DNA of 64,000 nt from the NCBI GenBank assembly GCA_977862235.1, contig OZ374561.1, positions 2,294,001 through 2,358,000 on the forward strand, in the 5' to 3' direction. The DNA is from Dudresnaya verticillata (lineage: Eukaryota). How positions within the stretch are numbered: the first letter of the stretch is position 1; each line of letters starts with the position of its first letter. This document shows, piece by piece, positions 5,822 to 64,000 of the stretch. Below the pieces are notes generated by a model, which worked only from the letters and a program-made list of their open reading frames with translations, had not been told where the DNA came from and did no database searches. Both the position numbers and the translations under genes were made by a program.

Positions 5822-8063
5822 TCACCGACGCCACTGGCGGATTCTCTTAACGCCTCTTCTTAGAGGTCGTCTTCCGTCACCGACGGTGCGCTCGGAGCAG
5901 GGGCAGGGACGGACCGCAATGGGACCCGCCACAGCCACTGCTGTCGAAGTCGCGACATCCGCCACTGGCGACGCACCTGGCTCACAATCCGCCTTAGGCG
6001 ACGACTGTTCGTCAACCGCCATAGGCGCAGCGTCAGAGTCATTATCCGCCTTAGGCGCTACACCAGGAAGCTCACTTGCCTCTGGCGGCGGAGCATCCTC
6101 AACCGCCTTGGGCGAAGTCGACGGCCCCGGCACCTCCGGTGACGGGACCGCATTAACCGCCAAAGGCGTTGAACGATCAACATCCGTCATCGACGAAGAG
6201 GCCACTGGAGCCTGCGAAACCGCCGTAGGCGCTGCCACCGCACTCGCCTTTAGCGAACTTTTGTTAACAACGTCAGTGGACGCAATGGCGGACGAACCCG
6301 CACAACCCGCCTTATGTGACAAAGGCTTTTTTGCCACTCCGTCATTAGACGCCGCACCTTCATCGTTAGACGGCATGGTCGCAACGACGGTCGACGCCGG
6401 AACCGCAGCAACGCTGGGATGCAGAGCAGCCAGTAGCGAGTGCCCGAGGGGCGTCGTGGATGACCCGCCCGACCCGTCAGTGACGACATCGGTGGCTCGC
6501 AAGAATGCGAGCACCGTGCGGCGCTGCTCCTCAGTCCACTCGGGCACTGCAGGAGGGCAATTCGCACCGTCAGCAACGTTGGACAAGCCGCCTTGAGGCG
6601 TAACTGCAGACGCAAACTCGCCATGGGCGCAGCCATGATGGCATCACCATCACCGTCATTGACGAGCGCCGAGAGATCCAATGGCACAACAGCCGACGGT
6701 CCTACCGCCGCTGGCGAAATCTTCGTCGGAGCTGTCGCCCCCGCAGTAAGCTCAACCGCCATAGGCGTAATGACGTCCGTCCCAGACGGGTTAACCGGTC
6801 CGCCGTTAGCGTGGAACGCATCCTCCTCCGCCATCAAGGCGCTCAAGTGGGGTGGGAAATCCCCCGCAAAGTCGCAATTCTTGCGCAACCCACGAGGGTG
6901 GTTCGCTGCCGTGAAGCGGTCCGTACGACGATGACTCTCAGCGATGTTCTCCGTCGTAAGACGTTTGGTCCACGGGTTGTACCACACCCAATCGCCACAG
7001 GCGGAATGATTTCTACTCTTCGCGTAACGCGGACGGTTTGCCTTACTGCGCCTGTTTCCCGGCTGCACAGCAGCCGGGTCGTCCCAGTTGACGTTATCCG
7101 CCACATGGCGTAGATCCCAGAACTCTTGGCAGTTCTTGGCACCGCCCAGCACTTCAGCCAAGTCAAGCCCGCCAAGGAGTCTAACTACGCGTGGCGGCAC
7201 ACAATAGAGCCGGAAGGTGTCATACACCTCCCACATCCATGCGTAAGTTACGTTGATGACCCACTCGGTGAAAAACACGATCCAACATCGGGAGTATGGA
7301 TCCGTCCGCAACTCGGAGCCAATATACGTGACACACGGAGGCAATTCAGCCGCAAAGCCCTCGCAGACCTCAAAGTCCCGCCACAACGGCGGGACGCGAA
7401 TGAAGCAATGCGGCAACTTTCCCGCTCAATGCGATCGACTTGCATATCTTGATACGGCACAAAAACGCCTTTACGGCAGCGCGTTTCGCACTCCCAACGG
7501 ACGCAGCGCTCCCAATAGAAGGTGCCCGTCCTATGCAAGTATCGGAAATCCGCTTTCGAGCGTACATCAAGGAGGTTAGCCTCCTGAAGCACCCGCGGCT
7601 CAGCCGAAACAGCCACATGGCTTAGTGACAACGTCCCAAGACGGTCCCCATACCCAACCTCGCCATTTGTGCGGTACTGCCCTGCGTCAAATTCAAAGAC
7701 GGTGGGCGTCAATACCGACCCCGGATAGCGGGTAAACCGCGGATACACGTCAACGACGAAACGCGCATGTGCATCTGCACGCGTCTGACCGGGGGCAATA
7801 CGCAGCCAACCTCTCGGAATGGCGCACCAATGGCGCCACTCGTTCGTCCACACGACGGCCAGGGGCAACTCCCCTGGCAAAAATCCGCTCACAGCGTAAT
7901 TGGTGATGAGGTCCTCGTGCCGCAGGGCCTCCTGGTCGAACCAGGGGGCCCGCGAGAATAATCGCGTATTGTTGCGGCGAGTCCTCCCGACAAAGTCGAA
8001 TGGTGACGGATACACCGGCGCCGCCGAAGGCGCAGCCACTTGTATGACATTGAACTGTGCCAT
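5822..8063 (-). pseudogene. Antisense orphan ORF of Gypsy A (frameshifted into 7248-8063, 6250-7416, 5822-6586)
   Basis: Colinear peptide similarity to 58790-60472 (GFLPGELPL/GFLPGDLPL, YRTNGE, CEGF, WEVYDTFR/WELYDTYR, CGDWVWYNPW/CGDWAWFDPW). Confidence 0.85.
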
Positions 8064-8523: not shown

Positions 8524-9425
8524 TGTAGTGCCAGGGGGGTCCCCATTTTCGCTTTCAAGCGGGTTGATATGCAGCGTCTACCGACGGACGACCGCCAACG
8601 GTGCGCTCAACCCGCCCGCGGCGCAAACACGTCACCGACGCATGCCGCTGGCCACTTGGGCCAGAACGGCTCGCTTGGCGTGCAGACCGCACGCCTGAAC
8701 CCGGGCACTGTACGGCGCCACACGTACGCGCATGGTGCAGTGGCAGGAACGTTCGCTGTAAGCGTGGCCCGAATCCGGATCCAATCGGGATCCCACATCG
8801 GGATCAGACATCGGGATTAAGAGGTGTAAGGCACGCGCCTGTAAGCCTGGCGCATCCGCATGGCTGGCCCGAATCCGGACTGGATCGGGATTGGTGCGGA
8901 TCGATATCGCACGCGCCATGGGGCGCATGCGGCTGTAAGGAAGTAATCCACGTGTAGGTGTAAGGACTCGAGCGGGGAAGCTACGCGTGATCTGTCAGGA
9001 GCGCGGCTGCATAACGGACGGATCTGTCCGACGCGCCTCGGGACAACACGTGTCCCGAGTTCCCGCGTAGCGCGTACACACGCGTCGCCGCCGCTAGGTA
9101 ATTCTATACTTAGTTGATCCGTCTCAGACGTCACAGTAAACCCCGGCAAGCCGGCGTTGGTCCAGACTTCCCCGCGCGTACCCTACCGCTGCCTACGGCT
9201 AAGCGTCTACCTCCCGTGCTTCCACGTCTCTACCCGTCTTCGATGTGTTCCCTTTTTGTTCTCGTTTGTTCTTCCTTTCCGCCTCGGGCGTTTACAGTCC
9301 GCCCAAGGCGAGTCAACTGCTCTACCACAAGTCGCCCAAGGCGAGCCTACTCACCGCCACGGGCGTCGCTACCCACCGAGCCCCGAACTCCTCGGCGGTG
9401 TTCCGTCTAGGACGTTTGCACTACA
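8524..9425 (+). repeat. 3' LTR of Gypsy A
   Basis: TG...CA ends with 8-bp inverted termini, preceded by PPT; closely similar to 22450-23361. Confidence 0.95.
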
Positions 9426-14111: not shown

Positions 14112-14726
14112 TGTGGTGCAATTCACCGGTGCTCATTTGCCTCAAATCGCGGACTCCCCGCCAGCAATGCACTTGGGGACTGCCCCTGTAAGGCTCCCGG
14201 CCTGTAAGTCCTGCGCGCCGGCGGCAACGGGTGGCAGATTATGGTGGCGGATCTTCGCTACTGTACGCACTGTCAGCCACCCTTAATTTTAGTTAATTTT
14301 AGTTAATCCCTTTTCGCGTGTCACGAATCTCCACATGGCACGCTCCCTTCCCCACTTCATTTGTGGCGCACCCGTGTGTACATAGTATATTAGAGCTAGG
14401 GCGCGCCCTCATTCAGTAAACAAGCCAAGCTCGGGCTCTACGACACACACCTCCCTACCCTTGACCGACATCTTCGTCGTCAGGAGGGACTCCAGTGCGT
14501 GCGTACCCCTTCTTCATCATACAGAACCCTGTTTTCCCCTTTTTCCTTTGCTTTTCCGCTATTTTAGGGTTCCTCCCTTTTTCTTTCGTCTCGTGGCGTT
14601 CTACAGTCGCGCTACGGGGCTACTCCCCACGCTCTACCACACCACCCCCTACTACCGCTACCCGCGGGTCCCGAACGCCCGAGGTGTGTCCTCTGTTGTT
14701 GTTTTCAGCAGTGGATTTGCACCACA
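14112..14726 (+). repeat. 5' LTR of element C
   Basis: TGTGGTGCAA...TTGCACCACA. Confidence 0.97.
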
Positions 14727-15265
14727 TTTCGTCTCCCGACCTAGAAGTTCGGAAATTCCGATTGGCTACGTTATCTACGCTACGGAACTACCGTTCTTCA
14801 CATTCTACCTTCTACATATATCGCAGAATTTCTGCCATGCCACTCCGTCGACAGCCGTCGTCGGCAAGGCCCGCCCCATCGCAGCCCGGAGCTGCTGTGG
14901 TTACGCGAGCTCGTGTGCAGGCATTTCCTGCGGTCCAAGCCGCCTTTTCAGCAATGCCCAATGAGGGGGTTCCTTTTGTACCGCCCTCGGTGGAGATAGT
15001 ACCTCCTGACCCAGCCGGGGCTCTCCCGACTGGCCAGGTCCAAGGCGGGCAGCCGGCATCTCCGCCTTCGCTGCCCATTCCACCATCGCCGATTTCGGCA
15101 TCACTTCCGCCTATTCGGGAATGGGGTGTCATCCCAAGTCATTCGGGATACACCCGTCACCACGCGGATATCCGCTCTGCCGTCTGGTCCGAACAATGTA
15201 CATGGCCACCACAGAGGAACTCCTAATATCCTTATCCGCCCCCTGCGGCGTGTCTTTCTCCATCC

Positions 15266-16822
15266 ATGCGAGGGTCTGAGACAGTCTCGTTACCTTCGGG
15301 AGACTCGACCTGGTGCTCAGCCACCTCATCACGGACCTTCGGGTCATCACAGTCGTCAAGCGACAATTTCAGCAGGTGCTATTCACCTTCAGAGTCGTCA
15401 ATAGACGCCTCCATGAGGTCATCCTCCTGTTCATCCTTGTGGAGTTCCACATCTTCGGACCTGTCCAACCCGTGGTCCGACGAAGAATCAGAGATAATCT
15501 CGTTAGCCGGCTGCCGCCGAGGTGAGCATCTCGACGCGTACGCGACGCACCGCGAAAAACCTGAGGATTACCTCATGACGACTCAACCGGATTTCCCGGA
15601 GTACACTGGGCATGGGCTATGCAGCCAAGACCCTAAACGGTGCGAGACCACCATGGTCCCAGTGGGAATCAGATGGAGACCTGCTTCAGAAACCGGGGAA
15701 AGACCCCTTGTACCTTCGCACGTTGAACTTCAACCTTCCCAGTCACAACCTGCGGAAGTCGGCACTGCCATTGAAATGGCAACTGACATTCCGGCTCATG
15801 GCTATGAGGAAATCCTCCCATATCTCGCCCCTCGAGTCCTCACGCGGAGAATCACGAGGCATTCCTCTGTACTGACAAGGGACTATGCCCTACGAAGACC
15901 CTGGAGAAGACTTCCACAGCGTGCTAAGCGGGGAATCCGCATCATGCGTGGACGGAATGCTGCGGTCTACGCCGATTTCGGCTTATCAAAGGTGTCAGTG
16001 ACACGCTCTGTCACAGTGATAGACATTTGTTCTGACCCGAACTTTATTCGGCAGTCGGAGCTACAACGGGTACTCCTGAAAGAAGAAGCAACAGTGCGGT
16101 ACGGTCCGCTGCTAGACTACCGAGACGAACGCGGAAAGCCGCTGAATACCTTCGGGATTACCAGCCTTCATGTGGCCATCGGTAACGTCAATACAGAAGT
16201 TGACTTCATAGTTGTTGGAGATCTCTCCGTGCCTGCCGTATTCGGCGCTGACTTTTGTGACGATTTTGTCGAGGCCATATGGCCTGCCCGGAGAAGTGTC
16301 GAGTTAGCTTCTGGGCTCTCCGTTCCAATAGTTCGGAGAATGCACAAACGCGTGCTTCGAGGACCGCCCCTTCCAAAATATCAGGAGTACTCTCGACTTC
16401 GCGGTCGTGTATCGCCTAAGATGCGAGTCACCCGTCCCGTTTGGCTGCGTCCGCAAACGACGACCTGGGTCGAAGTGACGGCAAAGCGTCATGGTATTCA
16501 AGTGGTAATCCCACAGTCAAGTTTCCAGAAAAAGAACTCGTGCGCTGTTCACGCGGGCGTTGTTCAGGTTGAACCTGACAAACCCTTCCTGGTGCTTGTC
16601 ACCAATTTCGGTCAGCTACCACAGAGCGTTTCTCCTCAGCAAAGCATTGGCAAACTCGCGCCACATCCCAGCATACGGTGGTCCATATCTCGTTCCCTTG
16701 CGGACCCGTTCGACGAAATGGGAATTCCCAATGTTAGAGTTCGCCTTTCTGACGGTTCTACACTCGACGGTTTTGACTACCGGAGCATCATTGTGGGAAA
16801 GCCACTTGATACTGGGAATTAG
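15266..16822 (+). CDS. Divergent Gypsy protease-region protein (probably catalytically dead)
   Basis: VIDICSDPNFI aligns with VLDTGAGPNFI and FGADFCDDFVEAIWP with LGCDFCDRFVEAIYP of ORF 43-666; DTG triad altered; start uncertain. Confidence 0.7.
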   Translation: MRGSETVSLPSGDSTWCSATSSRTFGSSQSSSDNFSRCYSPSESSIDASMRSSSCSSLWSSTSSDLSNPWSDEESEIISLAGCRRGEHLDAYATHREKPEDYLMTTQPDFPEYTGHGLCSQDPKRCETTMVPVGIRWRPASETGERPLVPSHVELQPSQSQPAEVGTAIEMATDIPAHGYEEILPYLAPRVLTRRITRHSSVLTRDYALRRPWRRLPQRAKRGIRIMRGRNAAVYADFGLSKVSVTRSVTVIDICSDPNFIRQSELQRVLLKEEATVRYGPLLDYRDERGKPLNTFGITSLHVAIGNVNTEVDFIVVGDLSVPAVFGADFCDDFVEAIWPARRSVELASGLSVPIVRRMHKRVLRGPPLPKYQEYSRLRGRVSPKMRVTRPVWLRPQTTTWVEVTAKRHGIQVVIPQSSFQKKNSCAVHAGVVQVEPDKPFLVLVTNFGQLPQSVSPQQSIGKLAPHPSIRWSISRSLADPFDEMGIPNVRVRLSDGSTLDGFDYRSIIVGKPLDTGN

Positions 16823-18321
16823 TCATGCCGGACAGAGGTATCCTGGCAACGGCAGTGTGGTCTGAGTCCACAATTATTGGGACTTTCAGATAGTCCCAAC
16901 CAAAACCAGAGCGATTTCGCTACTTTGTTTACTTGGGGTGGTCCCCAACTTGTTCCTGCTCCCGCTTCTCAAGCAGCAGCAGAAATACATATTGTGGATG
17001 GCCACGATAATCCTGACGAGGAATCCTCGAGTGACACATCATCGCGGAAATCCGCAAGCACCTGGGGACAAACCCTTTTCGCAGCCTCTGAATCAGAGCA
17101 ATCAAGCGGAAATTGTTCCGCAGTCTGCGGTGAGCGGGGGAAAGTTCCCATTCCGAAAACGTCGATAGTGCGAACGGGATTTCCCGAGGATAAAAGCGTT
17201 TGCGATGGCACTTCCCTACGGGATTACCCGACAAAGTTGGCAGCCAAAGTGGGCAATTGTCATCTGCAGATGAGTTCCGTGATGAAGTAGAATGGGCTCC
17301 TCGTGTTAGCCAATTGCAATTGGGGGAATCCCCTGTGATCCTTACTCCCGAGCCCAACCATGCTCCTCGCGATCACCAAGGCAAGGTGGATGCTTGCCGG
17401 CAGTCGGCTTTTCCTGGACGTGGTCGCAGAATTGCGAAGCGCCGGATGGGTCTACAGATCAGGGACTGCTCTCCAGGCTCGGGGAAAGGATTGGCTGCTG
17501 CGTTGGCCCCAAACATTGGAGCCAATCAGATCCCAGGATTTGGCAACAGTCACCCTTGACCCCGGCGTGCGCACCATCGTGCGCCCCACCGATGAGACGT
17601 CGCATTTCGGCTAAGTCCCAGACGGGCTACGCGAAAAACGGATATCCGTAGATGCTGCGACTAGCCGGCAACGGCCAGGTCAGCGAGCACCTTCACATGA
17701 TAGGGAGGTACCCTGAGGAGGCCGATGCGGCATATCGTTGTCGGTTTTCCAACGGCTTCGCCTGTTCGGTTACCGGATAAGCCCGTTTCATCGCGACGCA
17801 TGCGGCTTCATCCGCCAAAACTTCGCCCTCAAATGGAATCATTCCATACTTTCGCTTTACCTGCCGTGTGCAGTAGAGGAGCTCATTTAGCGAGGAAGCC
17901 ACATATCAGCGGGTCTACGCTGCGCTACGAAGTTCATCGCTCCAGCGGAAATCCGCAGTCAAGAAACAGCGCAACAAGTCGCCTCCGATAACTTCACCCC
18001 GCGGGGCCCCGCCCATCCGGATGGCTTCGTGCGCAATTGCACCACCCAGGGCGTGATTTCGCAACAACACCGCGGATGGCCCGCAAACCGCTCACCCCTG
18101 TTCCGGTGCAGCTTCTGGAATATCCAGTCAAGTCCCCACTACGCGGGACTCCGCTCTCCAGGAACCGCCGTAAGGCGCTTTCAGAAGAAGCCGCCGAATT
18201 TCGGCAACTCTGGCGTCGCCCGCATCGCGGCATGACACGCTGCAAGAGGATCTCCCTCACCCACCTGGGCCCGATGTCGCGCTGATACAAGCGCCAGGCC
18301 ATAATACGGACACCCCGCAAC

Positions 18322-18505
18322 ACGACGAATATGTCATTGAAAAAGTGGTAAGCCACGGATATTTTGATACAGAACTTCTGTTTGAGATCAAGTGGTACGG
18401 ATGTCCGTTCGCGCCGCAGACATGGAAACCCATTCACAACTTGCCGCGGAGTCAAACCGCATCCTATCATAACATGACGCGGCTTTGTGTACCCGCTACG
18501 ATGAG
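18322..18505 (+). pseudogene. Chromodomain remnant
   Basis: DEYVIEKVVSHGYFDTELLFEIKWYG matches DEYVIEKVVNHSYDNTQLLFEVKWYG of element E. Confidence 0.85.
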
Positions 18506-21486
18506 TGTGGCCATGACGGGATAAATCCACGGAGATACTCATGCAGGGCATCTGCTCAGTTCGAATCGTTGCGGACTTAGCCGCATTGGGGAGATAGACG
18601 AGCAACTGCAATGTACCAGTCGTCCAGCGACTCGGCGACTGTACGCCAAGATTGTGACTGCGATTGGCTTCCGTTTAGCCAAAAATAATTTTGGCCAATC
18701 AGGCGCCGGAATTTCGGCAGCAGTCACCTTCGGTGGTGTCGAGCTCGATATAAGTCGCTCCACCGACACAAAGTCGAATTTCGACTAAGTGCCCGACTGG
18801 GTATGCCCGAAACGGAATTCCGTAATGACTACCCCGAGCCACCAACGACATGGAGCATCCGTCCCCCCCATGGATTGGGCGACGCCTTTGCGCAGGTCGT
18901 ACAAGAGAAGTGGAATCCCACATCGCGGAACGTTCGCGTCAAAACCGACGCGACGCTCCCTACCAATCTAATGTGCGGCGCCCCGCAGAACCCATTAACG
19001 AAATCATGTGGGGCACACCCCTACACAGCCTACGGCAAACCGCTGCTGCCTCCCCCAAGCTGTCTGCGGCTAAATCGAAAAAGGCAACCCTGTTCAAAAC
19101 GGAATTCCGTAACAGCTAATCTGAGCCATTAATGGCCTTGAGCATTCACACACCCCAACGGTCAGGGAATGCCCCCGCGCCCGTCATTCGCAAAAGTGGT
19201 ACCCCACACGACAGGAAGTTCACGCCCAAGTCCATTGGCATCAATTGGAATTGCTAGTGCGCGGCATTCCACAAGCGCTCCCAATGCAGTTACCTGCTGA
19301 GGCACAATTGGCGTGGTCAAACCTCAACGAGAAGCCGCTGCCATAGTGCGGACAGTCCTGGCAAGTTACGCACTGTACGCCAAGATTGCGAGTTCGATTG
19401 GCTGCCGTTTGCCCAAAATTCAATTTATCCAATCAGGTGCCACCATCTTGGCAGTAGCGACCCTTGGGCGAATCCTACTTCGCCGACTCGCTTCCTCGAC
19501 ACAAAGTCGGATTTCGACTAACCCATTATCGGGTTATGCCAAAAACGGATACCCGTAGTTGCTGCCTCAAGCCGACGGAGGCCAGGTCGGTGACCATCCC
19601 GACACAATTGGGAAACTACCTTAGCAGGAAAAAACGGGATTGCGTGCATGGGTTTCAATCGGCATGCGCCTGTTTGTTACCACCCGGAGCACCCGGGTCA
19701 TGCCCGATCGAGAATGACACAATGTGTCGACACACGTGACCACGTCATGCGGGTGCTCCGCTGGGCTCTAAATGGAATCATTCCATGGATTCTCCCACAA
19801 ACGCCTGGGCATTTGGAGACATCCCTCGGCTCGGTTTCCATACCTCTAAGGCGCTCCTTCTGGCGTTCCCCACGGGAAACCGTTTTCATACTACTCAGAA
19901 ACTCCTGTTGGCCTATTTGCCTTTCATTAATCGCGATACCGGCGTTTTTGAAGTTCGCAACGAGTCTGCAAACGAGAATTCTCGTTGCTCAGCGTAGCCG
20001 AAACCCGCTTTGCACAGAGCCTGCTTCGTCCATGACAAACGCGGTGTTTTACGGGTTTGGCCCGATAGGCCCATGCTGGCCCAGACGGTCCCAACGACCC
20101 CTGTCAAGACGAAGTCGTCATGAAGAAGAAAACTTCTTTGAAACACCTACCAAGCAGTGTATCTACAATACGCTTCCCGGGATTCCGGTTCTAAGCCCGA
20201 AGAACCTTGGCTTGTTGGTTTCAACTTGCAAATAATTGCAGAATGCTGCTCTAGGGACGTTAAATCTACGCAAACAACGGGCTATGGAAATGAAAATGTT
20301 GTATTCAACTGTACTTTAAGTCTGGCGTACGCGCCTTGAGCTGCTGCATTTTTATGGCCGTGAAATGGGGAATACCCCAATGCATTTGACCGCGGACGCC
20401 GTTTCGCAACAACTGCAATGCGGAATTGCCGCCTTTTCCCAACCGCGCCCGGTTCGGCATCGGGAAGACCGAGTATTGGGGAACGCCCCATGCTGAAGTC
20501 TATTCGTGGGTTTCCACTTTTGCAGCTGCCATTCTGCGGTGACATCCGCTTGTTCGCCCGCACCTGTATTTGCCGTATTCGGCTGTTTGCTGTTTTATCC
20601 CCCGCGTTGGGGCCCCGGATGCCCCGGTCGACTACAGATGATGCCGTTTTTCGGCTGTGAATGCAGTGACAGGCGACAACGTCGAAGTGGCAGTGACTCT
20701 GAATGCTCTGAACTTGTCGATTTTCGACTTAGTGCTCTGTTAGAGTGTGCAGTACTGCACAAAGGGGCAATGTCTCATACACGGCCCATCTATGAAACAA
20801 ATGGGAAAAGGGCCGCAAGAGACCGGAAGAGGGGCCGCGGCAACCCCTGAGTAGCCGAAAGGTTATCACGGTTACTGTAATGTGCTTACAGCGGTCCGGA
20901 CCGGGCGGTCCACTGGAGGACCAATCGGGGCAAGATAAGGACCAGTCGGTCCCCTTTGTGGACCGATTTGAGGAAACTGGTTGCGCATGGAAAGGAAGGT
21001 TTCATAAGCACGAGTGCAACGAGAGGGTGTGCGGTACAAGCCGTCTACCAGCCTACACCATCTGATGATGCCGACAATAAGTTTAGAAGTCGTATTGCGA
21101 CATGGGAAAATGGCACTATTGCAGTATGTGCCTGCTGAGAGACACGAGGCAATATTAATAGGTATACCCACATGGTGTTGGGCATGTGCATCCAAGCACA
21201 CGATGCAAAGCCGGGAACCCCACCCCCTGAAATACCGAGGGTCGCGCCAGTTGCTCCTAAGCTCCGAACGCGTATTGCGGTTCATCCGCTTGCAGTACTC
21301 ATATCGCCATGATGACCAACGCCGGAAGCAGACAATCTGCAAATTCGCGAACCGGACGGGGAAGTCCCCCATTTTCGAAAGGGCCCCCTATTTACTCATA
21401 GGGGCGAGCTCAGACAGCGGAAATCCGCATTCAAGATGGATTTAGTGGGTTGGGCTCGCAGGGGCTCACCTCTTAACGGGGGGAGA

Positions 21487-22102
21487 TGTGGTGCAATTCA
21501 CCGGTGCTCATTTGCCTCAAATCGCGGACTCCCCGCCAGCAATGCACTTGGGGACTGCCCCTGTAAGGCGCCCGGCCTATAAGTCCTGCGCGCCGGCGGC
21601 AACGGATGGCAGATAATGGTGGCGGATCTTCGCTTCTGTATGCACTGTCAGCCACCCTTAATTTTAGTTAATTTTAGTTAATCCCTTTTCGCGTGTCACG
21701 AATCTCCACATGGCACGCTCCCTTCCCCACTTCATTTGTGGCGCACGCGTGTGTACATAGTATATTCGAGCTAGGGGCGCGCCCTCATTCAGTAAACAAG
21801 CCAAGCTCGGGCTCTACGACACACACCTCCCTACCCTTGACCGACATCTTCGTCGTCAGGAGGGACTCCAGTGCGTGCGTACCCCTTCTTCATCATACAG
21901 AACCCTGTTTTCCCCTTTTTCCTTTGCTTTTCCGACATTTTAGGGTTCCTCCCTTTTTCTTTCGTCTCGTGGCTTTTTACAGTCGCGCTACGGGGCTACT
22001 CCCCACGCTCTACCACACCACCCCCTACTACCGCTACCCGCGGGTCCCGAACGCCCGAGGTGTGTCCTCTGTTGTTGTTTTCAGCAGTGGATTTGCACCA
22101 CA
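21487..22102 (+). repeat. 3' LTR of element C
   Basis: Near-identical to 14112-14726, preceded by PPT. Confidence 0.97.
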
Positions 22103-49926: not shown

Positions 49927-50048
49927 GATTGGCTGAGAGGGGTTCCTAGCGGCCTTTTTTGGTCGCTAGTGGCCTGTTTTGGTCGCTAGCGCCAAAAAAG
50001 GCCGCTAGCAACCCCTCTCAGCCAATCAGAGCCATTCCTATCATACCT
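49927..50048. repeat. Long inverted repeat (hairpin/MITE-like); left arm continues at 47006-47033
   Basis: GATTGGCTGAGAGGGGTT.CTAGCGGCCTTTTTTGG pairs with CCAAAAAAGGCCGCTAG.AACCCCTCTCAGCCAATC. Confidence 0.9.
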
Positions 50049-53120: not shown

Positions 53121-53455
53121 AGGCGGCGCCGCTCGTGCGGTCGCGCGCACCGTCTTGTCCAACACCAGACCCACCTTCCCTTTCACCTTCGACGGCGTTG
53201 GGGGCAGCGAGCCCCCACGTCGAGCGCAGCGGCGCTTCGAAGGACTCGAGCGACGTCCCGGTCGACGGGACGTTGTGGAAGACGCGTACCAAACCACCCT
53301 GGCCGCCGCGGCGTCGACGCAAGCGACAGGCCAGGCAACAAGGGCGCAGCTCCCCAACGGCGGGACAGGCGGTACCCGACGCTCGACGCGAGGGTACCGG
53401 GGCTCCATGCATCAACGCGGAGCCGGCCACTACCCCCGATGGGTACGTGTGACTC

Positions 53456-56400
53456 GTGTACTCCGAGATTTACCGAGTGTCCGGGTACCTCGGTGCGGAC
53501 CCGCGGGTTATGATACCCCACACCCTCGCGGTGGACACCGGCTCCGGGTACAACCTCATCGCTCGAGGTGCCCTGCCCGCAGGCTGGGAGGAAAACGCGT
53601 CAGAGATCGATTCCGCGCCACGCCTGGCAGGCGCCGACAAGACTCCGCTGAGGCTGTCCGGCGTCGTCCACCTCTCGATGAGGTTGGGGAACACGACGTT
53701 CCGCATACCTTTCATCGTCGCCGACAAGCTCGCGGTTGACGTACTGATAGGCACGCAGTTTATCAACGCACACGTGCGCGGAATCGACGTCGAGTTGAGA
53801 AGGCTGACGCTGAGGAAAGGAGGCTCGGTACCCATCCTCAGCCGCAGGAACCCTAGCGAGGGAACCGGTCCGGCAACGCAGCCGAAGAAACCATCGAAGG
53901 GTTTGTCGAAGAAGCACCAGCGGGAGCTCCTCGACTGGGATCACGATATCCTCACCATACGCCTCGCTAGGCAGGTGGTTGTCCCAGCCTACTCGCAGAG
54001 GCTCGTCTCGGTGACGTCGGGGGCTAGTGGGTTAATCCACACGGAGCCCAAACCCTCGTTGCAGTTCCGCCATGGCGTGAGACTGACCAACGGGGTGCAC
54101 GACATCGAGTCGGGGCGACCCTTCGGGGTTATCTTGGGCAACTGGACTGACAAAGCCCGGACCCTACCGAAGGGTACCGTGGTTGGCTATGCGGTCCGCA
54201 ACCCAGTCGCCCTAATATCCCCGGACCGCGACGTCGCGGAAGAGTTCGGGAAGGTGATGAATATCACCACCCTTCCCCACAAAGGGCAGCGGCCCAGGGG
54301 TAAGGGGAGCAACGACCCCCCAGTCACGCCGTCGATGGCAAGGGGGCCCGAGCCCACAAAGCTCCAAGGGGCAGCAACCGCAGCGGCGGAGAAAAGAGAG
54401 TCCGTCGAGGACTGGGAGTTGCAGGTGGAACTTTCGTCTATCGAAGACAAGGTCACCCGCGAAGAAGTCTTCGCCATGCTTCGGAAGCATCAGTCCATGT
54501 GGGACGGGAGCCTAGGCACGATTGCCGCTACGCAACACCACATCGACGTGGAACCCGGCACGCGGCCGATTCTCTCAATGCCCTATCGACAGGGCCCCGC
54601 TATGCGGAAGCTCGTACAGAACGAGGTCGAGACCATGCTGCGTGCAGGGGTAATCGAACCCGCCACGTCGGAGTGGGCATCGCCAGTCGTTCTGGCGCCC
54701 AAGAAGGATGCCACGCTCAGGTTTTGTGTGGACTATCGACGTCTTAACACCAAAACCCTGAGCGATGCGTACCCACTCCCACGCATGGATGACTGTATCG
54801 ACAGTCTTGGTAACGCTGCCATTTTCTCAACGCTGGATTGTAACGCGGGTTACTGGCAAATCCCTGTCGCAGCGGCTCACAGGGATAAAACCACGTTAAT
54901 GACGTTCCTAGGGATGTACCGCTACCTGCGGATGCCCTTCGGACTGAAGAACGCCCCCGCGACTTTCCAGCGTGCACTGGACATCATACGCAGCGGAGTT
55001 AGATGGCAGTGTTGTTTGATCTATCGCGATGATGTGATCATATTCTCGCGGTCGATCGCGGAGCACGTCGGTCACCTAGACCGCGTGCTGACTCTGCTTC
55101 GCAAGGGCGGCGTGTCCCTGAAGCTGAAGAAGTGCCACTTCTTCCAGTCCCGCGTGGACTACCTCGGTCACGTGATCGAGCCGGGGAAACTACGCATGGA
55201 GAAGACAAGCATCGACGCGTTCCGCCATGCGCAGTTCCCGACCTCCCTAACGAAGGTGAGGTCGTTCCTCGGGGCGTGTAACGTTTACCGCCGCTTCGTC
55301 AGGAACTTCGCGAAGATCGCTCGTCCGCTGACGGATATGAGCCGCAAGGATGCGGATGTGGATTTCGATAATCCAAGCGCAGCGGCGCTAGAGGCATTCG
55401 AGACGCTGCGCGCGACACTCTTATCACCTCCTATCCTACGGCTCCCTCACGAGGGCAACCCGTACGTCCTCGACACGGACGCATCGGCGTACCAGCTCGG
55501 ATGCGCCCTGCTACAGGAGCAAGAGGACGGCCAGTTACACCCCGTTGGGTACTGGTCTTACTCACTAAGCTCAGCGGAGCGAAACTACTCGGCCACAGAG
55601 CGCGAGTGCTTTGCAGTGGTGTGGTCGATCACAACCCTGCGTCCCTACATCGAAGGGACCCGGTTCCCGGTACGAACCGACCATGACGCCTTGCGCTCAC
55701 TCATGTCTTTGACCGATTCGTCCGGTCGCCTCACCCGCTGGCGGTTACGACTCGCGGAATTCGACTTCCAGATCGAGTACCGCCCGGGTAGGGTACACCA
55801 GGTGCCGGAGGCGCTTTCCCGCCTGGTGAGGCCTCGACAGCAGCAAGAGGAGGTTGATGACGACGTCCCTACCTATGAACCCCCGGCGGTCGACCGCCAG
55901 AAGGAGGGTGCCTCGAGTACCGAACCCAAGGCACCGTTGGTCTTGCTAACCACGCGGTCCCAAGCCAACGCGTCGACGCGGAAGGCGCCGGATCGACCGG
56001 CTGCAGTGGGCGGCACTGGCAGCGAAGCCAAGGAGCCCTCGGAAAGCGACGAGCCACCGGGTCTTGCCGACGACGAAGCCTGGGACGACTGCGACAACGT
56101 CGACCTCTTCGACCTTTGCCGCATCGACGCGAGCCAAGAGCCGACGGACCTCACCCGGGTCGAACCGATGAAGCTCCCTTCACCAATAACCGTCGAGGAA
56201 TTGGTGGATGCGCAGCGGCGCGATTCTTTCTGCCAAACAGTGTTGGCACGGCAGTCCCGTCGACGGGATAGCCACTTCTTCGAGGACGAGGACGGGCTCT
56301 TGTGCCGGCGTCACCCCGTCATCTCCTCGTTGGAGCAAATAGTGGTGCCCGAAGCGCTACAGCCGCGGCTTCTCACGCTCGCGCACCACTCCCTTCTGGC

Positions 56401-57676
56401 TGGCCACCCTGGCCAGAACAGGATGTTCTACACGCTCCGCGAGAGCTACTACTGGCCTCACATGTCAGCGGACATAGCCATGACAGTTCGGAACTGTCGG
56501 CACTGTGCCAGGAACCGAATACGCTTGCGGAGGTCCCTTCATCGGTTGAAGTTGTTCCCGGCCACGAGGCCGCTCGAGTTGCTCGCGATCGATATCCTAG
56601 GGCCGCTGCCCAAGAAGAAGTCAGGAAAGCGATTCCTGCTCGTCATGACGGATCGATTCACGAAGCTGACTCAAGTAGCACCGCTGCGCACCGTCACAGC
56701 GTACCACGTCGCAGTGGCGTTCTGTGAGAGGTGGATCTTCGACTATGGACCACCGAGGTCTCTGTTGTCCGACAACGAGAAGCAATTCACCTCTAAGTTC
56801 TTTCAGGCAGTGTGCTGCTACCTCGGACTGAAAAACGTGTTCACGTCCGCTTACCACCCGCAGGTGAACGGACAGGTTGAGCGCTACAACCGGCCCGTCA
56901 TGGCCATGTTGCGGAGTTACATCAACGATCACCAGGACAACTGGGATCGATACGCAGCGGCGTTGACGTATTCCTACAACTGCCATGTCCATCGCACGAC
57001 GCGGACGACACCCTTCAGCCTCGTGCTGTCCCGGCCGCCGCCGGAGTTCACTAAGTTTCATAAGGCAGCGGCCAGACCGAAACCTAGTGAGGACGTGCGC
57101 GCGGACTTCCTCAAGCGGCTCGACGCCGCCTTCGCAAGCGCATCGAGCGCTCTCGACAAAACGCAGCGGCGTTACAAGAAAGATTTCGACAAGCGTGTCA
57201 GAAAAGTCAACTCCCGCATTCGAGCGGGAGACTACGTCTTCATTGACGCGAGCGACGGGGTTAAGAAACCCAAGAAGCTCCAGAGCCCAGCGATAGGGCC
57301 CTACCGCGTGCTGCTTAACGACAAGCGCACGCTGTTTATCGACAGAGGCGGCTTGGTCGAACGCATCGCAGCGGACCGCGCCGTCTACTGTCCCCCGCCG
57401 CTGCGGGAGGATACTGCGCAGCGCAGCGCTTACTTACCCACCTCTGAGGAACTCGCGTCCAAAGCCGTCGACGGCCCGCGGTTCGTGGTGGATAAGGTCC
57501 TTGACCACCGCACTGCCGACGATGGCACGCTCGTGTTCAAGGTGAAGTGGACCGGCTATCGCAAGCCGACGTGGGAGCCACGTTCCCATCTCCCCGAGGA
57601 GATGGTGAGCCACTACTTCGCATCGCAGCGGCGGCGAAACACCAACCGGCTCGAAGCCGTTCTCTCCTCCTCATAA
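53456..57676 (+). CDS. pol: Gypsy pol polyprotein PR-RT-RNaseH-INT-chromodomain, 1406 aa
   Basis: VDTGSG, YRDD (variant of YLDD), TDASAY, H-H-C-C, SDN, GQVERYN, GPY, FKVKWTGYRKPTWEP; in-frame TGA just upstream at 53450. Confidence 0.96.
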   Translation: MYSEIYRVSGYLGADPRVMIPHTLAVDTGSGYNLIARGALPAGWEENASEIDSAPRLAGADKTPLRLSGVVHLSMRLGNTTFRIPFIVADKLAVDVLIGTQFINAHVRGIDVELRRLTLRKGGSVPILSRRNPSEGTGPATQPKKPSKGLSKKHQRELLDWDHDILTIRLARQVVVPAYSQRLVSVTSGASGLIHTEPKPSLQFRHGVRLTNGVHDIESGRPFGVILGNWTDKARTLPKGTVVGYAVRNPVALISPDRDVAEEFGKVMNITTLPHKGQRPRGKGSNDPPVTPSMARGPEPTKLQGAATAAAEKRESVEDWELQVELSSIEDKVTREEVFAMLRKHQSMWDGSLGTIAATQHHIDVEPGTRPILSMPYRQGPAMRKLVQNEVETMLRAGVIEPATSEWASPVVLAPKKDATLRFCVDYRRLNTKTLSDAYPLPRMDDCIDSLGNAAIFSTLDCNAGYWQIPVAAAHRDKTTLMTFLGMYRYLRMPFGLKNAPATFQRALDIIRSGVRWQCCLIYRDDVIIFSRSIAEHVGHLDRVLTLLRKGGVSLKLKKCHFFQSRVDYLGHVIEPGKLRMEKTSIDAFRHAQFPTSLTKVRSFLGACNVYRRFVRNFAKIARPLTDMSRKDADVDFDNPSAAALEAFETLRATLLSPPILRLPHEGNPYVLDTDASAYQLGCALLQEQEDGQLHPVGYWSYSLSSAERNYSATERECFAVVWSITTLRPYIEGTRFPVRTDHDALRSLMSLTDSSGRLTRWRLRLAEFDFQIEYRPGRVHQVPEALSRLVRPRQQQEEVDDDVPTYEPPAVDRQKEGASSTEPKAPLVLLTTRSQANASTRKAPDRPAAVGGTGSEAKEPSESDEPPGLADDEAWDDCDNVDLFDLCRIDASQEPTDLTRVEPMKLPSPITVEELVDAQRRDSFCQTVLARQSRRRDSHFFEDEDGLLCRRHPVISSLEQIVVPEALQPRLLTLAHHSLLAGHPGQNRMFYTLRESYYWPHMSADIAMTVRNCRHCARNRIRLRRSLHRLKLFPATRPLELLAIDILGPLPKKKSGKRFLLVMTDRFTKLTQVAPLRTVTAYHVAVAFCERWIFDYGPPRSLLSDNEKQFTSKFFQAVCCYLGLKNVFTSAYHPQVNGQVERYNRPVMAMLRSYINDHQDNWDRYAAALTYSYNCHVHRTTRTTPFSLVLSRPPPEFTKFHKAAARPKPSEDVRADFLKRLDAAFASASSALDKTQRRYKKDFDKRVRKVNSRIRAGDYVFIDASDGVKKPKKLQSPAIGPYRVLLNDKRTLFIDRGGLVERIAADRAVYCPPPLREDTAQRSAYLPTSEELASKAVDGPRFVVDKVLDHRTADDGTLVFKVKWTGYRKPTWEPRSHLPEEMVSHYFASQRRRNTNRLEAVLSSS

Positions 57677-57862
57677 CCCCTCGGCGGGGGCGCCTCGCGC
57701 TTGAGGAGGGGGCCGCAGGCATTCGTTGCCTTTTTGCGCGGGCATTCGTTGCCTTTTTGCGAAGGCAATCGATGCCTCACCCTACCCTGCACTGGGCATC
57801 GAGCCGAGACAGGTCACCCTTGCGCCTGCAGCAGCGGCAGTAGCACAAGAGGGGGCAGCAGA

Positions 57863-58634
57863 TGTGGTGCAATCCACTCGGTAGAATTGAGGGTGCACCT
57901 CAGGCGGTTCGGGGGCCTGGCGGTAGCAGGTGAGGTAGTAGCGGTAGAGCAGGGGAGTAGCCCCGTAGTGCGCCTGTAAAACACTACAAGGCCGAGAAAG
58001 GGGGTTACCCTAGAAAGGAAGAGAAAAAAAGGAGAAATAAGAGAAAAACAGGATTCTGTACGATGAAAAAGGGTAGCGGATGTACTGGAGTCCAGCCTAG
58101 AGAGGGAGTCGATAGGGTAGGAGGGTACGTCTCGCTGGGCCCAAGCTTAGCCGTTTATTGTATGAGGGCGCACCTCAGGGCCTTATTATGCTATGTAGGA
58201 GGCGGGTGCCTTGGTGGCGGATTAAGGTAAGGGAAGGGGGTGCGCCACTTGGCATTACGTGGCGCGCGCAATCCTATAATTATCTACTAAATATCAACTG
58301 TCAGCCTAGTGGTAGTGTGGCTGACGGTGTGCGCCAAGGGGGCGCACGTGTGCACATGTACGCGTTGTTGCGTTGCGGGGCCATCCTTGCTGGCAGAGGG
58401 CGCCGCATACTGTCAGGCCGGGCGCCTTACAGAGGCAACTCCCCATTAGCATTGCTGGTGCGTGCGCGTGGTGCCAGAGCTCATTACAGAAATTGGCTCT
58501 GAGCTCAATCACCCGCACAGCGGTTGATCCGCACGAAACGGTCGCTGTGCGTCCGTCGTCCGCGGTCGCGTGAGCCGCGGGTGACGGTATTATAAAGAAT
58601 TCTTCAGCAGGGCGCCAAGGCGATTTGCGCCACA
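57863..58634 (-). repeat. 3' LTR of Gypsy E
   Basis: TGTGGTGCAA...TTGCGCCACA followed by TCTCCCCCCCGTT (PPT on minus strand); similar to element C LTR. Confidence 0.92.
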
Positions 58635-58789
58635 TCTCCCCCCCGTTAAGCGGCGAGTACCCGCACGAGCCCACACGGTTTCGGTCAAGCTCACGCACTT
58701 TGCGACCTGGTGTCGGACTTTTGGTGGCATATTGCCTTTCGTAACTGCGGAATTCCCGCGTGTTGGTCTTGCGTTGGGCGTTTAACACG

Positions 58790-60472
58790 ATGCCGCCGAA
58801 CTTCTCGCCAGCGGAGTTAGACCGCGTGCTGCTCCATGCACCGTAGAGTTCTGCATTATACCCTACCCCTGCCGACTTCGAGGGCAAAACGCCGTGACAC
58901 GACATCATCGAGTTTGCCAACGCGCCGTGGATGTTCCACACGAACCTAGGCAAGCACGACTTGATCGAGCAGTACGTTTCTGCGGATGGGTTCCTGCCTG
59001 GGGACCTTCCCCTTCGCGTCTTGCGGACACCTGACTGGCGCCGGCACGGAGCGATTCGTCCGGAATGGATCCGGCGCCATGGCGGTGAGGACGTACGGAA
59101 AGCGCGACTGCGGTATGTCCGCTTGGTGTTACAGCACTTGACGCGTACGCCGGGTCGTGAGGTCATCCCCCATGGGTATTGGTTAGACCTTGGCGTATAC
59201 CGCACAAATGGGGAAATCCCCTATGCTGACGCCCTCGAGTATCTCCCTATCCCGCATGAGTGGGATGGTGTGGAGCCTCGTGTCCGTCAGTCAGCCCTCT
59301 TGATGGGCGTGCAGTTGCGTGCGGAATTCCGCTTTGTGCGGAAGCGCGATAATAACGCATACTGGGATAAGGTGCGTTGGGAGCGGCGCGCCCGTTCCCG
59401 TTTGGGCTTCCTAGTGCCGTACCCAAATGTCGAAATCGACGCAATACGTCGCAACTACCAGGAGAGGTGCTACGTGCGCCTGCCGGTCCCACAATGGGGC
59501 TTGGTAGAGAGTTGTGAGGGATTCCTCGTTGAGTTGGCGCCGGCGGTGAGCTACACCATGTCCTCTGTTGGGGGCTACCCGCAATCGGGACTATGGGTCG
59601 TCTATTACACGGAATTCGTGGCGAAGACGGCGGTTCAGTGGCTATGGGAACTCTACGACACGTACCGTATGTAGTACGTGTCGCCCACAGTCGTGGAGTT
59701 CTTCGCCTCGTTGGACTTGAAGATGGTCCTCGGTGGGATAAACAATGAAGCGGAATTCCGCGTTTTGCTGGGGTTCTACGCCCAGGTGGACTGGGATCGT
59801 GACGAGCAGCGCGTGCCGTTGCGCAATAATAAGAGGAGCTCCTCATCGACCAACTTCTCTCCTGGTCGCCGCCATCCGTCATGCGGCGACTGGGCCTGGT
59901 TCGACCCGTGGTCGAGGACCTTCGTTTCTGCGGACCGCGCCGCTTGGTTGCGCGACAATCCGCGTTCGATGCCCCCCGGGCAGCCGCGGGGTTATCTATT
60001 AGATCCCGAGGCTGGCGGCGGCAACGTGTCGGACCGAGATGGGGAATCCTCCGACGTAGGCAGCAATGGGGAAATCCCCGAAGATGATGCAATGACGATC
60101 GATGCGTCTGTGGGGGAAGACTGTCCGGCCGTGCCATCTCCTACTACCGCTGATGCCCCGGTCGCGGCGACGGAAGTGGCGACTGACGCGGGTGGGTGCA
60201 GCAGCGGCGGCGCTGTCATAGCGAGCGTGCCGATCGTTCGGCCGCCCGCTATTCGGACGCCGTCACCTGTCCCGGAAAGCCAATCTCGTGCACGGCGCGT
60301 GCGACTGAGTTTCAGTCAGCGCATTGCCGTAATCGGCTTTTTGCGTAGGATGGGAATTCCCGAGAGTGCCATCCGCGGCAGCGACGAGGAGCTCCTCGAG
60401 GTCGCTGTCGATAAGGGATTTAGTTTGGATGACGAGGATGAGGCAGGCCCAAGCGGGCCTGCCGATATCTAG
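58790..60472 (+). pseudogene. Antisense orphan ORF of Gypsy E (single frame, three in-frame stops)
   Basis: ATG 58790 in frame with 58931-59674 and 59678-60472; LYPTPADFEGKT aligns with VYPSPFDFVGRT of element A. Confidence 0.85.
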
Positions 60473-62180
60473 TCGAGTGGCGACATATGGCGTGGGGCAA
60501 CCGACCCTGTGGGACTAGCCCATGCGTTGTAGTAGGGAGAGCGTCGCCATAATCAGGACTTATTAAAAGTTTGCCTGTTTGTTTTCTTGCTTACCATAAT
60601 GCGGCGAGTCGCTCTTAGGGGAGGTTCCCTGAGTGGTGGTAAAGCGCGGTGATTCGCATACGTAGATGTCGGCGAGCGCGGGGGTCGCAATATGCCATCA
60701 TTGAGGCATACGCCGCGTAGTGTGGAAGTCCACAAATCGTAAGCGGCTTGCACGTGAGTGTGCTTGACCACTTGGCGTGCGGTTGCTCAAGGCCTTTGGC
60801 GGCTTAGAGCGGTAGGTACGGATTTCCGTTCTGGGCATGGCTCGCAATTCCCACTTAGTCGTGAACGACTTGGGGGAGGAGGTGCGGCGTGATTGCGGTC
60901 GTCCGCTAGGGTGGCCCTCCGCGTGGATACGCGGCAGATGATTGGTGCGGAATACGCCGGCACCATGATTGTCCAATGGATGTCCATAGAGTGGCGCATT
61001 GCACGTGACCTGCATGCTCACTGCCACGGGTACAGTAGACCAAAAGTGTACTGTGGTCCAGCCACATTAATTGGTGATACAGAAGTCTGCTATCGCGTGC
61101 GTTTGCCTATGTCGCATTCTGACCCGGTTAACCGGACGCATGTGCGTAAGCGTCTACCCGAGTAGCTGGGTGATAGGGCGATCCAGCTCGTTTAGCTAAG
61201 TGGAATGCCACGCGAGATCATGGCATGCCCACTGTAGGGGTGCCGACTGGCCTGTGCCCGAGCTCTTGGTCGTGTGAGATACCACTTTTGTCAAACACTT
61301 GCAGTTGTAGGTGCCGCGTGAGCACGCGCAGGCAGAGGCACTCCCCTAGCGTTGGGGAGTGGTACCCCAGTCCGTCGGTGGCTCTTGTTTAGTGTTTACG
61401 GAATTCCGTTCAGTAGAGTTGCCTTTGCAGCGTGAGTTGTAGGCGACGGGGAGGTGGCGGCCTTTGTAGGGGTGTTCCCCAATCGTTGGGCATAAGAGGG
61501 GTTCCGTGGGACACCACATTAGAGTGAGGTTTAGGTGTAGGTATCCCCCTTTTCATGGGGGAGCGGATGCCAAAGGCCATCGACTGCTCAGCCCCGTGAT
61601 TACGGAATTCCGTTGTAAGGATGGCAGCTTTGGTAGGCTCCGCCGCAGACGGCTTGGAGACGGCCATAGCGTACGACTGCGCTCTGCTACAGTCCACGCG
61701 GAGGAGTTCCCCTTTGGATTCGCTACAAAGGCGGTATGGAGCGCCTCATGTCATGGGGGTCGTGAGCGTCGCGTTGTCGTTGACGCGAACGCCCTGCGAT
61801 GCGGAATTCCGCTTTTTGTGTACAGCCTACGCCACGGCGTTCCCCTTCGGGTGGGGGAACGGTATCTCAAAGCCGTTGGTGGCTAGGAACAATCGCTACG
61901 GAATCCCGTTTTGTGTATGCTCGAGTCATTAACTTAGTCGTATTCGACTTTGGGAGCGACGATGGCGACCAGTTGCGGTAGACCGCTAGGATGAGTGGGT
62001 GCGCATAACGAGCATCTGATTGGTGCGGCGATAATTAAAATAGCGTCTGGCCAATCAGGTGCTATACCGTGGCGTACAGTACCTCCGTCGTGCGCGCAGC
62101 AACCACTGTGGCATCGACTCCTGGGCCCGACTCTTCAATGTGGTGTCTCCACTTCATTTGGACCTGGTAGCGTTTGGGGG

Positions 62181-63998
62181 TTAGCCCACCATTGCCTTGG
62201 TGATGGTGGAGGGGACGCCGAGACGTCTCCTCTTGCAATATGAGATAACTTGACTCCGCGGTAGATGTTGTATGGGCTCCCATGTATTTTGCGAAGACGG
62301 ATAGCCGTACCATTTGACTTCAAACAGAAGTTGTGTATTATCATAACTGTGGTTCACCACTTTTTCGATGACATACTCGTCACGCTGCGGAATGTCGGCA
62401 TGGTGTCGGTGCCTTGATGACACGGTGTCATCAGGCCGAGGGTCCGATTGTGACACGCGTGGAGCGGCGGTAGCTATACGGCGACTCCGTCTGGGGCTTG
62501 GCGTGCCAATGGTCGCGGTTGTGACTTGATTGCGGTCTGCCGCTTCTGATCCGAGGATCCGGCTCACGAGAGGCCGCGTAGGGATTTCCCTAATGGTGTC
62601 GTCAAACGTGACGTTCTTTCTTGGTGGGCGTGGAGAATCCTCCTGGTGGTTTTCTTGCGTTCTAGACGCGTCTGGTGACACATCGCGTGTCTCTCCTTCA
62701 GGAGCGGGGCCCTTCCCGTTAGCGGGTAGGGTTTCAGCCTGACTATGGGGCCGTGACTCATCCACCTGATTGATGTCAGCCGAGTTTGCGGCAGGTGTTA
62801 GGCGATGGGTGTGTAGTGTCCCGGATGGGTGTGGCTCGAGGTCTTCCGCTATCCGACGAATAGGCGAGCCTTTGCGGAGTATATCCCGCGTCGCTGCTTC
62901 TTGTGGAGTACTCTCCTGGGAGGCGGTTATGCCGGTATTCTACGTGGGTTGCCGTTGACGAGGAGTTTCCTCCGAGTGGGGGTCGTCGGGCGATATCGCT
63001 GGTGCCTTTGGTGAGGTATCATGAGGAATTCCCTCTATTGTACCGTTGACGGCCTTGGTGCCTTCTGAGACAGCGTGCGGTTGATCCGCGATGGGGTGTC
63101 CATTTGCGCGGGCGCCGTTCGCTGGCCTGGATTCCGGCTCCAAACTTGCGTGAGCAGGAGTTGGAGTGGGAGCGGCGGCGTCAGCGCGTGTGGTGGGTGG
63201 TGAGTGAATTGCGGTAGTCCGCGTGCGGACGCCAGCGGTGCGTCTGGGTACTACGGGCGGCGGTAAATCCGCCAATCCGCGATCATTGCGTGGCTGTAGG
63301 GCTGGCGCCACAGCATGAAAAGTAATTGGGACATTTTCCCCGTGAGACACAGTAGCTCCGTCAGCGCGCTGCATTCGAGTATGATCGTTATTGAGATCGT
63401 CCGTTGGCGGTAATTCCGCATCTGTCAGGTCTGCCGTCCCTTCGGCGTTGGCTTGGTTGGTCGCGTCCCTTGGTGGGGCGGGCGCCAACACGACTCTGTC
63501 GCGGGAAATCCGCTCGTATTCAGGCCCGTCCTTCTCGACGGTGACCGTCTTGTCATTTGCGTCACTCACGCGATAGGGGCCGTCGGCGATAGGCGCCAGT
63601 TTTTGTTTTGGGGTATCCTTCCCATAGTACTCCTTACGTACGTAGACGTAGGAGTCTACTCCGATGACGTTGCGTGAGGGACGTACCCTGTTATCGAAAT
63701 TGCGTTTGTATCGCGCTTGTGTCTGTTCAACGCCTTTGGTGGCAGTTGACAGTAGTCCTGTGAGCCAGGACTGCCATTTGGCGTGGAATGTAGCCGAACT
63801 CGGCACTGGTTCCAGTGAGGGATGTGCCTCGACGCTTAGAGCGGGTGGAGGTCTGGAAAGTATCAGTTGAAAGGGGGCCAGGTTCGTGGTAGAATGAACT
63901 TGCGTATTGTACGCGTAGGTGATGGCATCTGAGAATAAATCCCATTCACGCGGATGGTCCGCAACGTAGTGCAGTAGCGCGGCGCGCATTGTATGCAC
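62181..63998 (-). pseudogene. pol: Integrase C-terminus, linker and chromodomain of Gypsy E
   Basis: YAYNTQVHSTT, ADGPYRV, in-frame stop at 62940, FEVKWYGYPSSQNTWEP. Confidence 0.93.
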
Positions 63999-64000
63999 CG

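Follow-up and report, generated by a model that had tools for sequence, protein, structure and literature searches.

The window, by which we mean the whole 64-kb stretch of DNA analysed (GC content 55%), is a nest of transposons. One of them, the Gypsy LTR retrotransposon designated E, carries an open reading frame (ORF) on the strand opposite to its pol gene. Read along the minus strand, the order is integrase core end, linker, chromodomain, 1.7 kb of non-coding DNA, ORF, polypurine tract (PPT) and LTR. The ORF, on the plus strand, thus lies between the chromodomain (62184) and the PPT and LTR (58634), and the order is identical in a second element, Gypsy A. Coordinates of all features are given in Table 1.

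Table 1. Features of Gypsy E and of related elements in the window.
Feature	Position	Strand	Remarks
3' LTR of Gypsy E	57863..58634	-	772 bp, TG...CA, 71% like element B LTR
E-type mini-hairpins of Gypsy E	57863..64000		46 in 6.1 kb, median spacing 100 bp, 10 inside ORF
TATA-like box facing ORF	58591..58596	+	200 bp upstream of ATG, in U3; weak, possibly chance
Polypurine tract of Gypsy E	58635..58650	-	adjoins LTR
Antisense accessory ORF of Gypsy E	58790..60472	+	family profile match, iE 5e-141
Conserved core domain	58832..60001	+	approximately residues 15-404; largely helical; matched no known family or fold
Acidic Pro/Ala/Ser-rich linker	60002..60301	+	poorly conserved, likely disordered; low pLDDT past core in homologue
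Small conserved helix-loop-helix domain	60302..60436	+	approximately 35-45 residues, near C-terminus
Non-coding 3' region of Gypsy E	60473..62180		~70% like matching region of B; mini-hairpin-rich
Polyadenylation-like signal	60560..60567	+	88 bp past ORF stop; weak
End of Gypsy E pol	62181..63998	-	integrase core end 63519-63998, long low-complexity linker, chromodomain 62184-62393
Antisense ORF homologue of Gypsy A	6250..8063	-	broken by two frame changes (~7420, ~6600)
3' LTR of Gypsy A	8524..9425	+	element A = 1-9425
Element B, non-autonomous Gypsy relative of E	14112..22102	+	8.0 kb, LTRs 97.9% identical

The frame of the Gypsy E ORF opens with an ATG and extends over 560 codons free of frameshifts, with three internal stops (codons 19, 36 and 295). 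A preliminary description of this DNA had reported a single frame of about 560 codons with nonsense changes only, antisense to pol and starting some 155 bp from the LTR, and this was borne out, the ORF start (58790) lying 155 bp inside from the 3' LTR (end at 58634). When the sequence was shuffled, a mean of 18.0 stops was found, and three or fewer occurred in only 1 of 5,000 shuffles; a chance ORF was therefore rejected. A shadow of an opposite-strand gene was also rejected, as the two minus frames of about 300 codons gave no family match and the homology lies in the plus frame. This copy is itself dead as a gene, and any function would come from intact copies elsewhere. Transcription may start at the edge of U3 in the 3' LTR, from a promoter that points in the antisense direction. 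The U3 stretch containing the TATA-like box is absent from the LTR of element B, which also lacks the ORF.

The chromodomain at the C-terminus of the Gypsy E integrase was matched by Pfam Chromo at 4.2e-12 (46.2 bits vs a cut-off of 25.1), and chromodomains were likewise matched in elements A, B and D. E is termed a 'chromodomain Gypsy' after this domain; its reverse transcriptase (RT) falls beyond the window, and chromodomain Gypsy lineages are described outside the chromovirus clade as well (PMC12477816). Approximately 370 low-complexity residues (62400-63500) separate integrase core and chromodomain in E; the linker of Gypsy A is long too. Gypsy D (51800-57862) has a near-intact pol of 1407 codons with RT, RNase H, integrase and chromodomain. 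Element B, flanked by a 5-bp target duplication, retains a protease-like region, a chromodomain and about 60 E-type stems (see below); no RT, RNase H or integrase core was found in it, and its 3-kb 3' region is without antisense ORF.

Minus-strand ORFs at 12870-14132 and 23400-25580 resemble, by reading, pieces of a DIRS-type element, the first without Pfam match and the second with weak RT similarity (E 3e-4 at 24169-24498). Interstitial telomere-like repeats (T3-4 A G3-4; ~24060-24145), resembling the Bostrychia unit, are inserted in an RT-bearing region. A large Helitron-like element (~28000-45400) encodes a PIF1 helicase (37634-38773), a weak Ulp1 protease match (33717-34769) and several long ORFs without Pfam match. 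A LINE ORF2 of 932 codons with endonuclease and RT (46988-49786) is followed by an isolated 101-bp inverted repeat (49927-50027; 86% self-complementary).

Gypsy A lies on the plus strand with pol at 608-4600 and its ORF on the minus strand. Comparison of the A and E ORFs by tblastn gave E 6e-72, with 40% identity over 215 aa and 31% over 267 aa. The local alignment scores (377 and 345) far exceeded the maxima from 1,000 shuffles (63 and 73), so that the E ORF is indeed a second member of an antisense ORF family, as had been proposed. When the six reading frames of the whole window were searched with a family profile, only these two copies were detected; among the three window elements with a visible 3' region the ORF is present in two, A and E, and absent from the non-autonomous B. 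As to the claim that placement is the same in both hosts, order and orientation agree; the distance of ~155 bp does not, the A ORF starting (8063) about 460 bp from its LTR (8524). A solo LTR of family A (22450-23361; 5-bp target duplication, 92% identical to the A LTR) also lies in the window.

Over 386 aligned codon pairs the A and E proteins are 39% identical. Codon positions 1, 2 and 3 are identical at 55, 62 and 31%, four-fold sites at 30% (25/82), with pN 0.42 and pS 0.79, and 88 of the 138 residues identical in both proteins are encoded by different codons. Synonymous saturation combined with a retained protein indicates that the ORF is old and has been under purifying selection as a protein. 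Elsewhere, A and E are 52% identical in the integrase-core ends and 45% in the chromodomains. The LTRs of A and E, said to look unrelated, gave no alignment under strict scoring (24 vs a shuffle maximum of 30), and a faint match appeared under lenient scoring (30 vs a maximum of 25 in 300 shuffles). Unalignable LTRs are usual at such a depth of divergence, and their dissimilarity is no sign of exchange.

The conservation of the ORF, close to that of the pol domains (39% vs 45-52%), would suit a cofactor of the particle or of integration, acting in assembly, nuclear import or target choice together with the chromodomain, and unrelated to silencing and to the hairpins described below. Such roles have been proposed for plant antisense ORFs (aORFs) (PMC7264820). 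We regard this role as unlikely for the present protein. A separate antisense gene is, as generally known, not co-translated with Gag-Pol, and most Gypsy elements transpose with no such gene.

The preliminary description had left it between an ancestral gene and one exchanged between lineages. That the gene is old and common to distinct chromodomain-Gypsy lineages stands. Judged from the sequences, an accessory gene inherited with the element is favoured, since synonymous sites are saturated, the ORF is more diverged than the integrase-core end, and a quick tree of 51 N-half sequences, weak in its deep branches, did not place A and E side by side. Recent exchange between lineages is not supported by these comparisons; an old exchange between Gypsy lineages may have taken place. 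We are highly confident that the ORF represents a real inherited accessory gene.

The family profile was built from A, E and one intact homologue and searched among 1.84 billion sequences clustered at 50% identity. It returned 1,072 representatives at E<=0.001, of which 450 also passed 1e-10 and 106 passed 1e-30; stop-free copies, which had been sought, are many among these 1,072 relatives. Out of 21 clusters looked up, only one was named, a four-copy hypothetical protein from Gracilariopsis chorda whose members (PXF40140.1, PXF49255.1, PXF40362.1, PXF47852.1) each lie on a different contig; the remaining clusters came from ENA, Logan and JGI assemblies. Near-identical multi-copy clusters such as this are as expected for a mobile gene. 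The relatives probably sit in Gypsy elements as well. The hosts of the carrier elements are likely red algae, as indicated by the G. chorda cluster and, weakly, by the telomere-like repeats near 24060. Of 137 aligned relatives, 59 span most of the core, with a median pairwise identity of 31% and a 95th percentile of 42%. Word-index searches for proteins returned 1, 0 (restricted to short lengths) and 9 matches, and three loci (L001-L003) were dismissed as chance pattern matches rather than homologue loci.

Searches of 52 + 35 family members gave no Pfam family above weak single matches. NCBIfam and PHROGs (five proteins each) yielded weak sub-threshold rows only, and no usable match to the family was obtained from PDB sequences or an ESM Atlas features search. 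In the literature searched, with Repbase and most subscription journals outside its coverage, no account of the protein family or of the hairpin code was found.

A recent move of the ORF between Gypsy lineages, or a captured host gene or nested element useless to its carrier, would present the gene as a passenger. The 39% identity between A and E is indeed near the top of the family range, and movement from one family to another has been reported for the red-algal accessory genes PAG1-3 (10.1101/2025.02.11.637652). Synonymous saturation and an ORF identity below that of the integrase speak against recent transfer, as does the finding that each ORF copy bears the hairpin type of its own carrier (see below), and the want of matches to host families speaks against capture. 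We consider a passenger origin very unlikely.

The protein has a two-domain layout, in which a linker joins a large core and a small C-terminal domain (Table 1). For the core, an AlphaFold2 model was obtained with pLDDT 92.0 and pTM 0.90, using as query P0006, the intact relative closest to E (44% identity), and an alignment of 137 sequences. It predicts a compact core of 390 residues, within which invariant Arg, Trp, Tyr, Glu and Asp residues cluster. When the whole core model (411 residues) was submitted to Foldseek, none of 27 rows from the PDB and none of 13 from BFVD reached E<=0.001. The best Z in a wide VIA search was 2.4 (rmsd 4.2; 61 aligned), where unmatched models typically reach Z 7 to 8. 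The model thus suggests a new fold. The charge of the homologue core is near neutral (R+K 41, D+E 43), and no DNA-binding domain was recognisable in the family sequence.

A profile seeded with 20 sequences of the small C-terminal domain matched 49 of 180 family proteins, and its model consists of two helices (pLDDT 79.6). By eye we took this domain to resemble SAP/HeH, an identity that found no support: the best Z was 3.5, and a SAP domain ranked among tied rows at Z 3.0. Foldseek returned no row under E 1 and no clear fold match emerged. The candidate for this domain in Gypsy A was non-significant.

The position between pol and the 3' LTR recalls an env-like protein for cell-to-cell spread. 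The ORF is antisense, though, the model is compact and soluble, and the cores of 15 proteins show neither a transmembrane stretch nor a signal peptide-like start; the highest 19-residue hydropathy is 0.9-1.6 in 14 of the 15 and 1.84 in one tail. The protein is, as judged from its sequence, soluble, and an env-like gene was rejected as extremely improbable.

A layout in which a disordered linker connects a large conserved core with a small helical tail would suit protein interaction. The accessory factor could then act on a host protein or pathway, for instance as a suppressor of RNA- or chromatin-silencing, with the hairpins read otherwise, most simply by Gag in packaging. Many host partners have been predicted for the accessory proteins of transposons (PMC13547354). 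The viral and PDB fold searches showed no similarity to known suppressors, which is weak evidence against such an action. Taken as a whole, action on the host combined with another reader of the hairpins appears rather unlikely to us, for reasons that include the properties of the hairpins themselves.

All four Gypsy elements of the window (A, B, D and E) are studded with mini-hairpins with 4-bp stems, which differ between A, E/B and D. The A-type (CG-N-C, 3-nt loop, G-N'-CG) occurs 61 times in the 9.4 kb of A. The E-type (RN-GG, 4-5 nt mostly A/T loop, CC-N'Y) is common to E and B. In D, free 4-bp stems surround the fixed loops AGCG/CGCT and ATCGAC/GTCGAT. These classes were defined after viewing the data, and a motif-free count of perfect 4-bp stems against dinucleotide shuffles served as a guard. 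It gave z 15 for A (loop 3), 12 and 10 for B and 8 and 8 for E (loops 4 and 5), and 6-9 for D (loops 4-7). The LINE, used as a control, showed no such excess (z at most 1.4). A smaller one (z up to 6) in the element at 28-45 kb comes from a fixed palindrome: the Helitron-like element holds 21 copies of GACA-N4-TGTC, some inside ORFs, and offers another instance of a dispersed palindrome specific to one element.

The stems covary. The variable stem pair is Watson-Crick at 61/68 sites in A (24.9 permuted), 34/65 in E (16.9) and 46/75 in B (20.7), compared with 7/39 (10.0 permuted) in Gypsy D as E-type control, and pairing ends after four pairs. Between the A LTR and the 92% identical solo copy, all eight A stems are kept and four loops are changed; the solo LTR has two further hairpins, each broken in A by one base. 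A distant inverted fragment of a family-A LTR (45568-46300; 70-72%) has kept three A-type hairpins. Compensatory stem changes were seen by eye at matching places in E and B.

Hairpins are also imposed on coding sequence. There are 10 E-type hairpins in the E ORF vs 1.7 after synonymous shuffling, 16 vs 1.6 in the E integrase stretch and, for the A-type, 10 vs 1.1 in A pol, while foreign types in D pol (3 and 1) stay close to the shuffled values (1.8 and 1.0). The E ORF holds no A-type hairpin, and the two main frames of the A ORF contain 11 A-type and four E-type. The hairpins are a strong and unexplained selection signal overlaid on Gypsy coding sequence.

Whether they are read as DNA or as RNA was approached through loops and G-U pairs. 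The loop AGCG occurs in perfect stems at 13/54 sites in D and 0/55 in A, its reverse complement CGCT at 8/51 in D and 0/71 in A. G-U pairs are found at 1/68 sites in A, and in E seven GU face seven AC. That D employs a loop as well as its reverse complement, and that G-U pairs are not in excess in A and E, suggests that the hairpins are read on DNA. On the sense strand of the 5-nt-loop sites of B, GU 9 vs AC 2 leans towards RNA.

A protein binding hairpins in the genomic RNA, as a Rev-like export factor or a stability or packaging factor, would fit the covarying stems, which are the usual sign of RNA structure, as well as the B counts just given and the E-type stems, which fold as RNA with energies between -3.3 and -5.0 kcal/mol. 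One of the common A-type stems, however, is barely stable as RNA (-0.2 kcal/mol), and this together with the D loops in both orientations and the G-U counts of A and E makes an RNA-binding role quite unlikely. If Gag read the hairpins as packaging signals, as considered above, their spread over whole elements, including D and the ORF-less B, would be accounted for; the two-way loops of D and the near-absence of G-U pairs in A and E again fit an RNA signal poorly.

A family-specific signature under selection needs a reader that co-evolves with the element. If the hairpins are DNA-read, the accessory protein is the strongest candidate for their reader, on the analogy of VANC21 and PAG3 (see below). 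In the mechanism that we put forward, the accessory protein would act in trans on its own transposon family by recognising the family-specific mini-hairpins that cover the element DNA. This recognition would keep the family active, protecting it from host silencing, and non-autonomous relatives such as B would be served in trans. Both the protein as reader and protection as outcome are putative, and the mechanism as a whole, an antisense protein reading the hairpins of its own family in a VANC-like manner, is offered as a tentative proposal, which may well prove wrong. B retains E-type hairpins; the ORF is missing from it, as is the part of the LTR that bears the antisense TATA-like box. CpG o/e is 0.96-1.29 in the window elements, showing no depletion, so there is no footprint of a methylation that would need countering. 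It also counts against the mechanism that ORF and hairpins are linked in two carriers only, A and E, and that the hairpins could instead be read by Gag, by integrase or by a factor of the host. The near-neutral charge of the core, the want of a recognisable DNA-binding domain and the differences from the VANC motif (see below) weigh against it as well. The 3' region of D is cut by the insertion of E, 186 bp after the D pol stop.

Should the mechanism hold, it would represent VANC-like self-recognition by a retrotransposon, resting on structure instead of a fixed motif, and would help to explain LTR-driven genome growth in red seaweeds. The fuller claim, of a self-recognition new for retrotransposons in which an antisense protein with a new fold reads a code of 4-bp DNA hairpins every 50-100 bases, in coding sequence too, and so labels the family, non-autonomous relatives among it, to escape silencing, is speculative and, on our present estimate, somewhat unlikely. 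Even without the protein as reader, the hairpins remain a strong selection signal on Gypsy coding sequence. A large family (>1,000 clusters at 50% identity) with intact natural members and a confident model can be studied directly, the hairpins are a concrete candidate ligand, and the A-, E- and D-types provide a built-in specificity control.

A class of antisense ORFs lying between pol and the 3' LTR is already known, and its function and origin are described as an open question (PMC7264820, PMC11963269). New here is a large unannotated accessory-protein family without structural match, in elements with an unexplained hairpin code. Described examples of the class, termed aORF-3R, are maize Grande gene23, rice RIRE2, Silene Retand and bean PvRetro13 (PMC7264820). 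The present ORF resembles these, as described, in position, antisense orientation, conservation across lineages and a likely promoter of its own near the 3' LTR. It differs from them in the chromodomain of the Gypsy E host element, in a host that is likely a red alga and in belonging to no Pfam family; the text of the aORF review is silent on algae (PMC7264820). An identity with TRP28 was rejected, no Transposase_28/PF04195 match being found in the 52 + 35 proteins. Retand, in turn, is described as a non-chromovirus limited to flowering plants (PMC11963269), whereas a chromodomain is present here at the end of the E integrase. Like brtn of the Botrytis Boty-like Gypsy, compared by description only, the ORF is an additional gene on the antisense strand of a Gypsy element from outside the plants; none of the 21 family clusters looked up carried a fungal name.

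Accessory genes of red-algal transposons have also been described in Plavaka DNA transposons, where PAG1 is, as here, without known domain and PAG3 is proposed to bind the inverted repeats of its own element (10.1101/2025.02.11.637652). PAG2 and PAG3 are set apart, by description, through their methylase/SET and ParB/2OG domains, which were not seen in this family. A parallel to the proposed mechanism is VANC of the VANDAL/MuDR elements, for which VANC21 is reported to bind a dense family-specific motif of VANDAL21 (PMC5735166). No VANC/MAIN-like domain was matched by Pfam in the family proteins or listed in the fold searches. In both, an accessory protein accompanies a dense, family-specific short signature that is kept by non-autonomous relatives. 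As described, the VANDAL host is a Mutator-like DNA transposon and the VANC motif a fixed 9-mer, mainly non-coding and in one orientation; here the host is a Gypsy LTR element, and the signature consists of covarying hairpins that extend into coding frames too.
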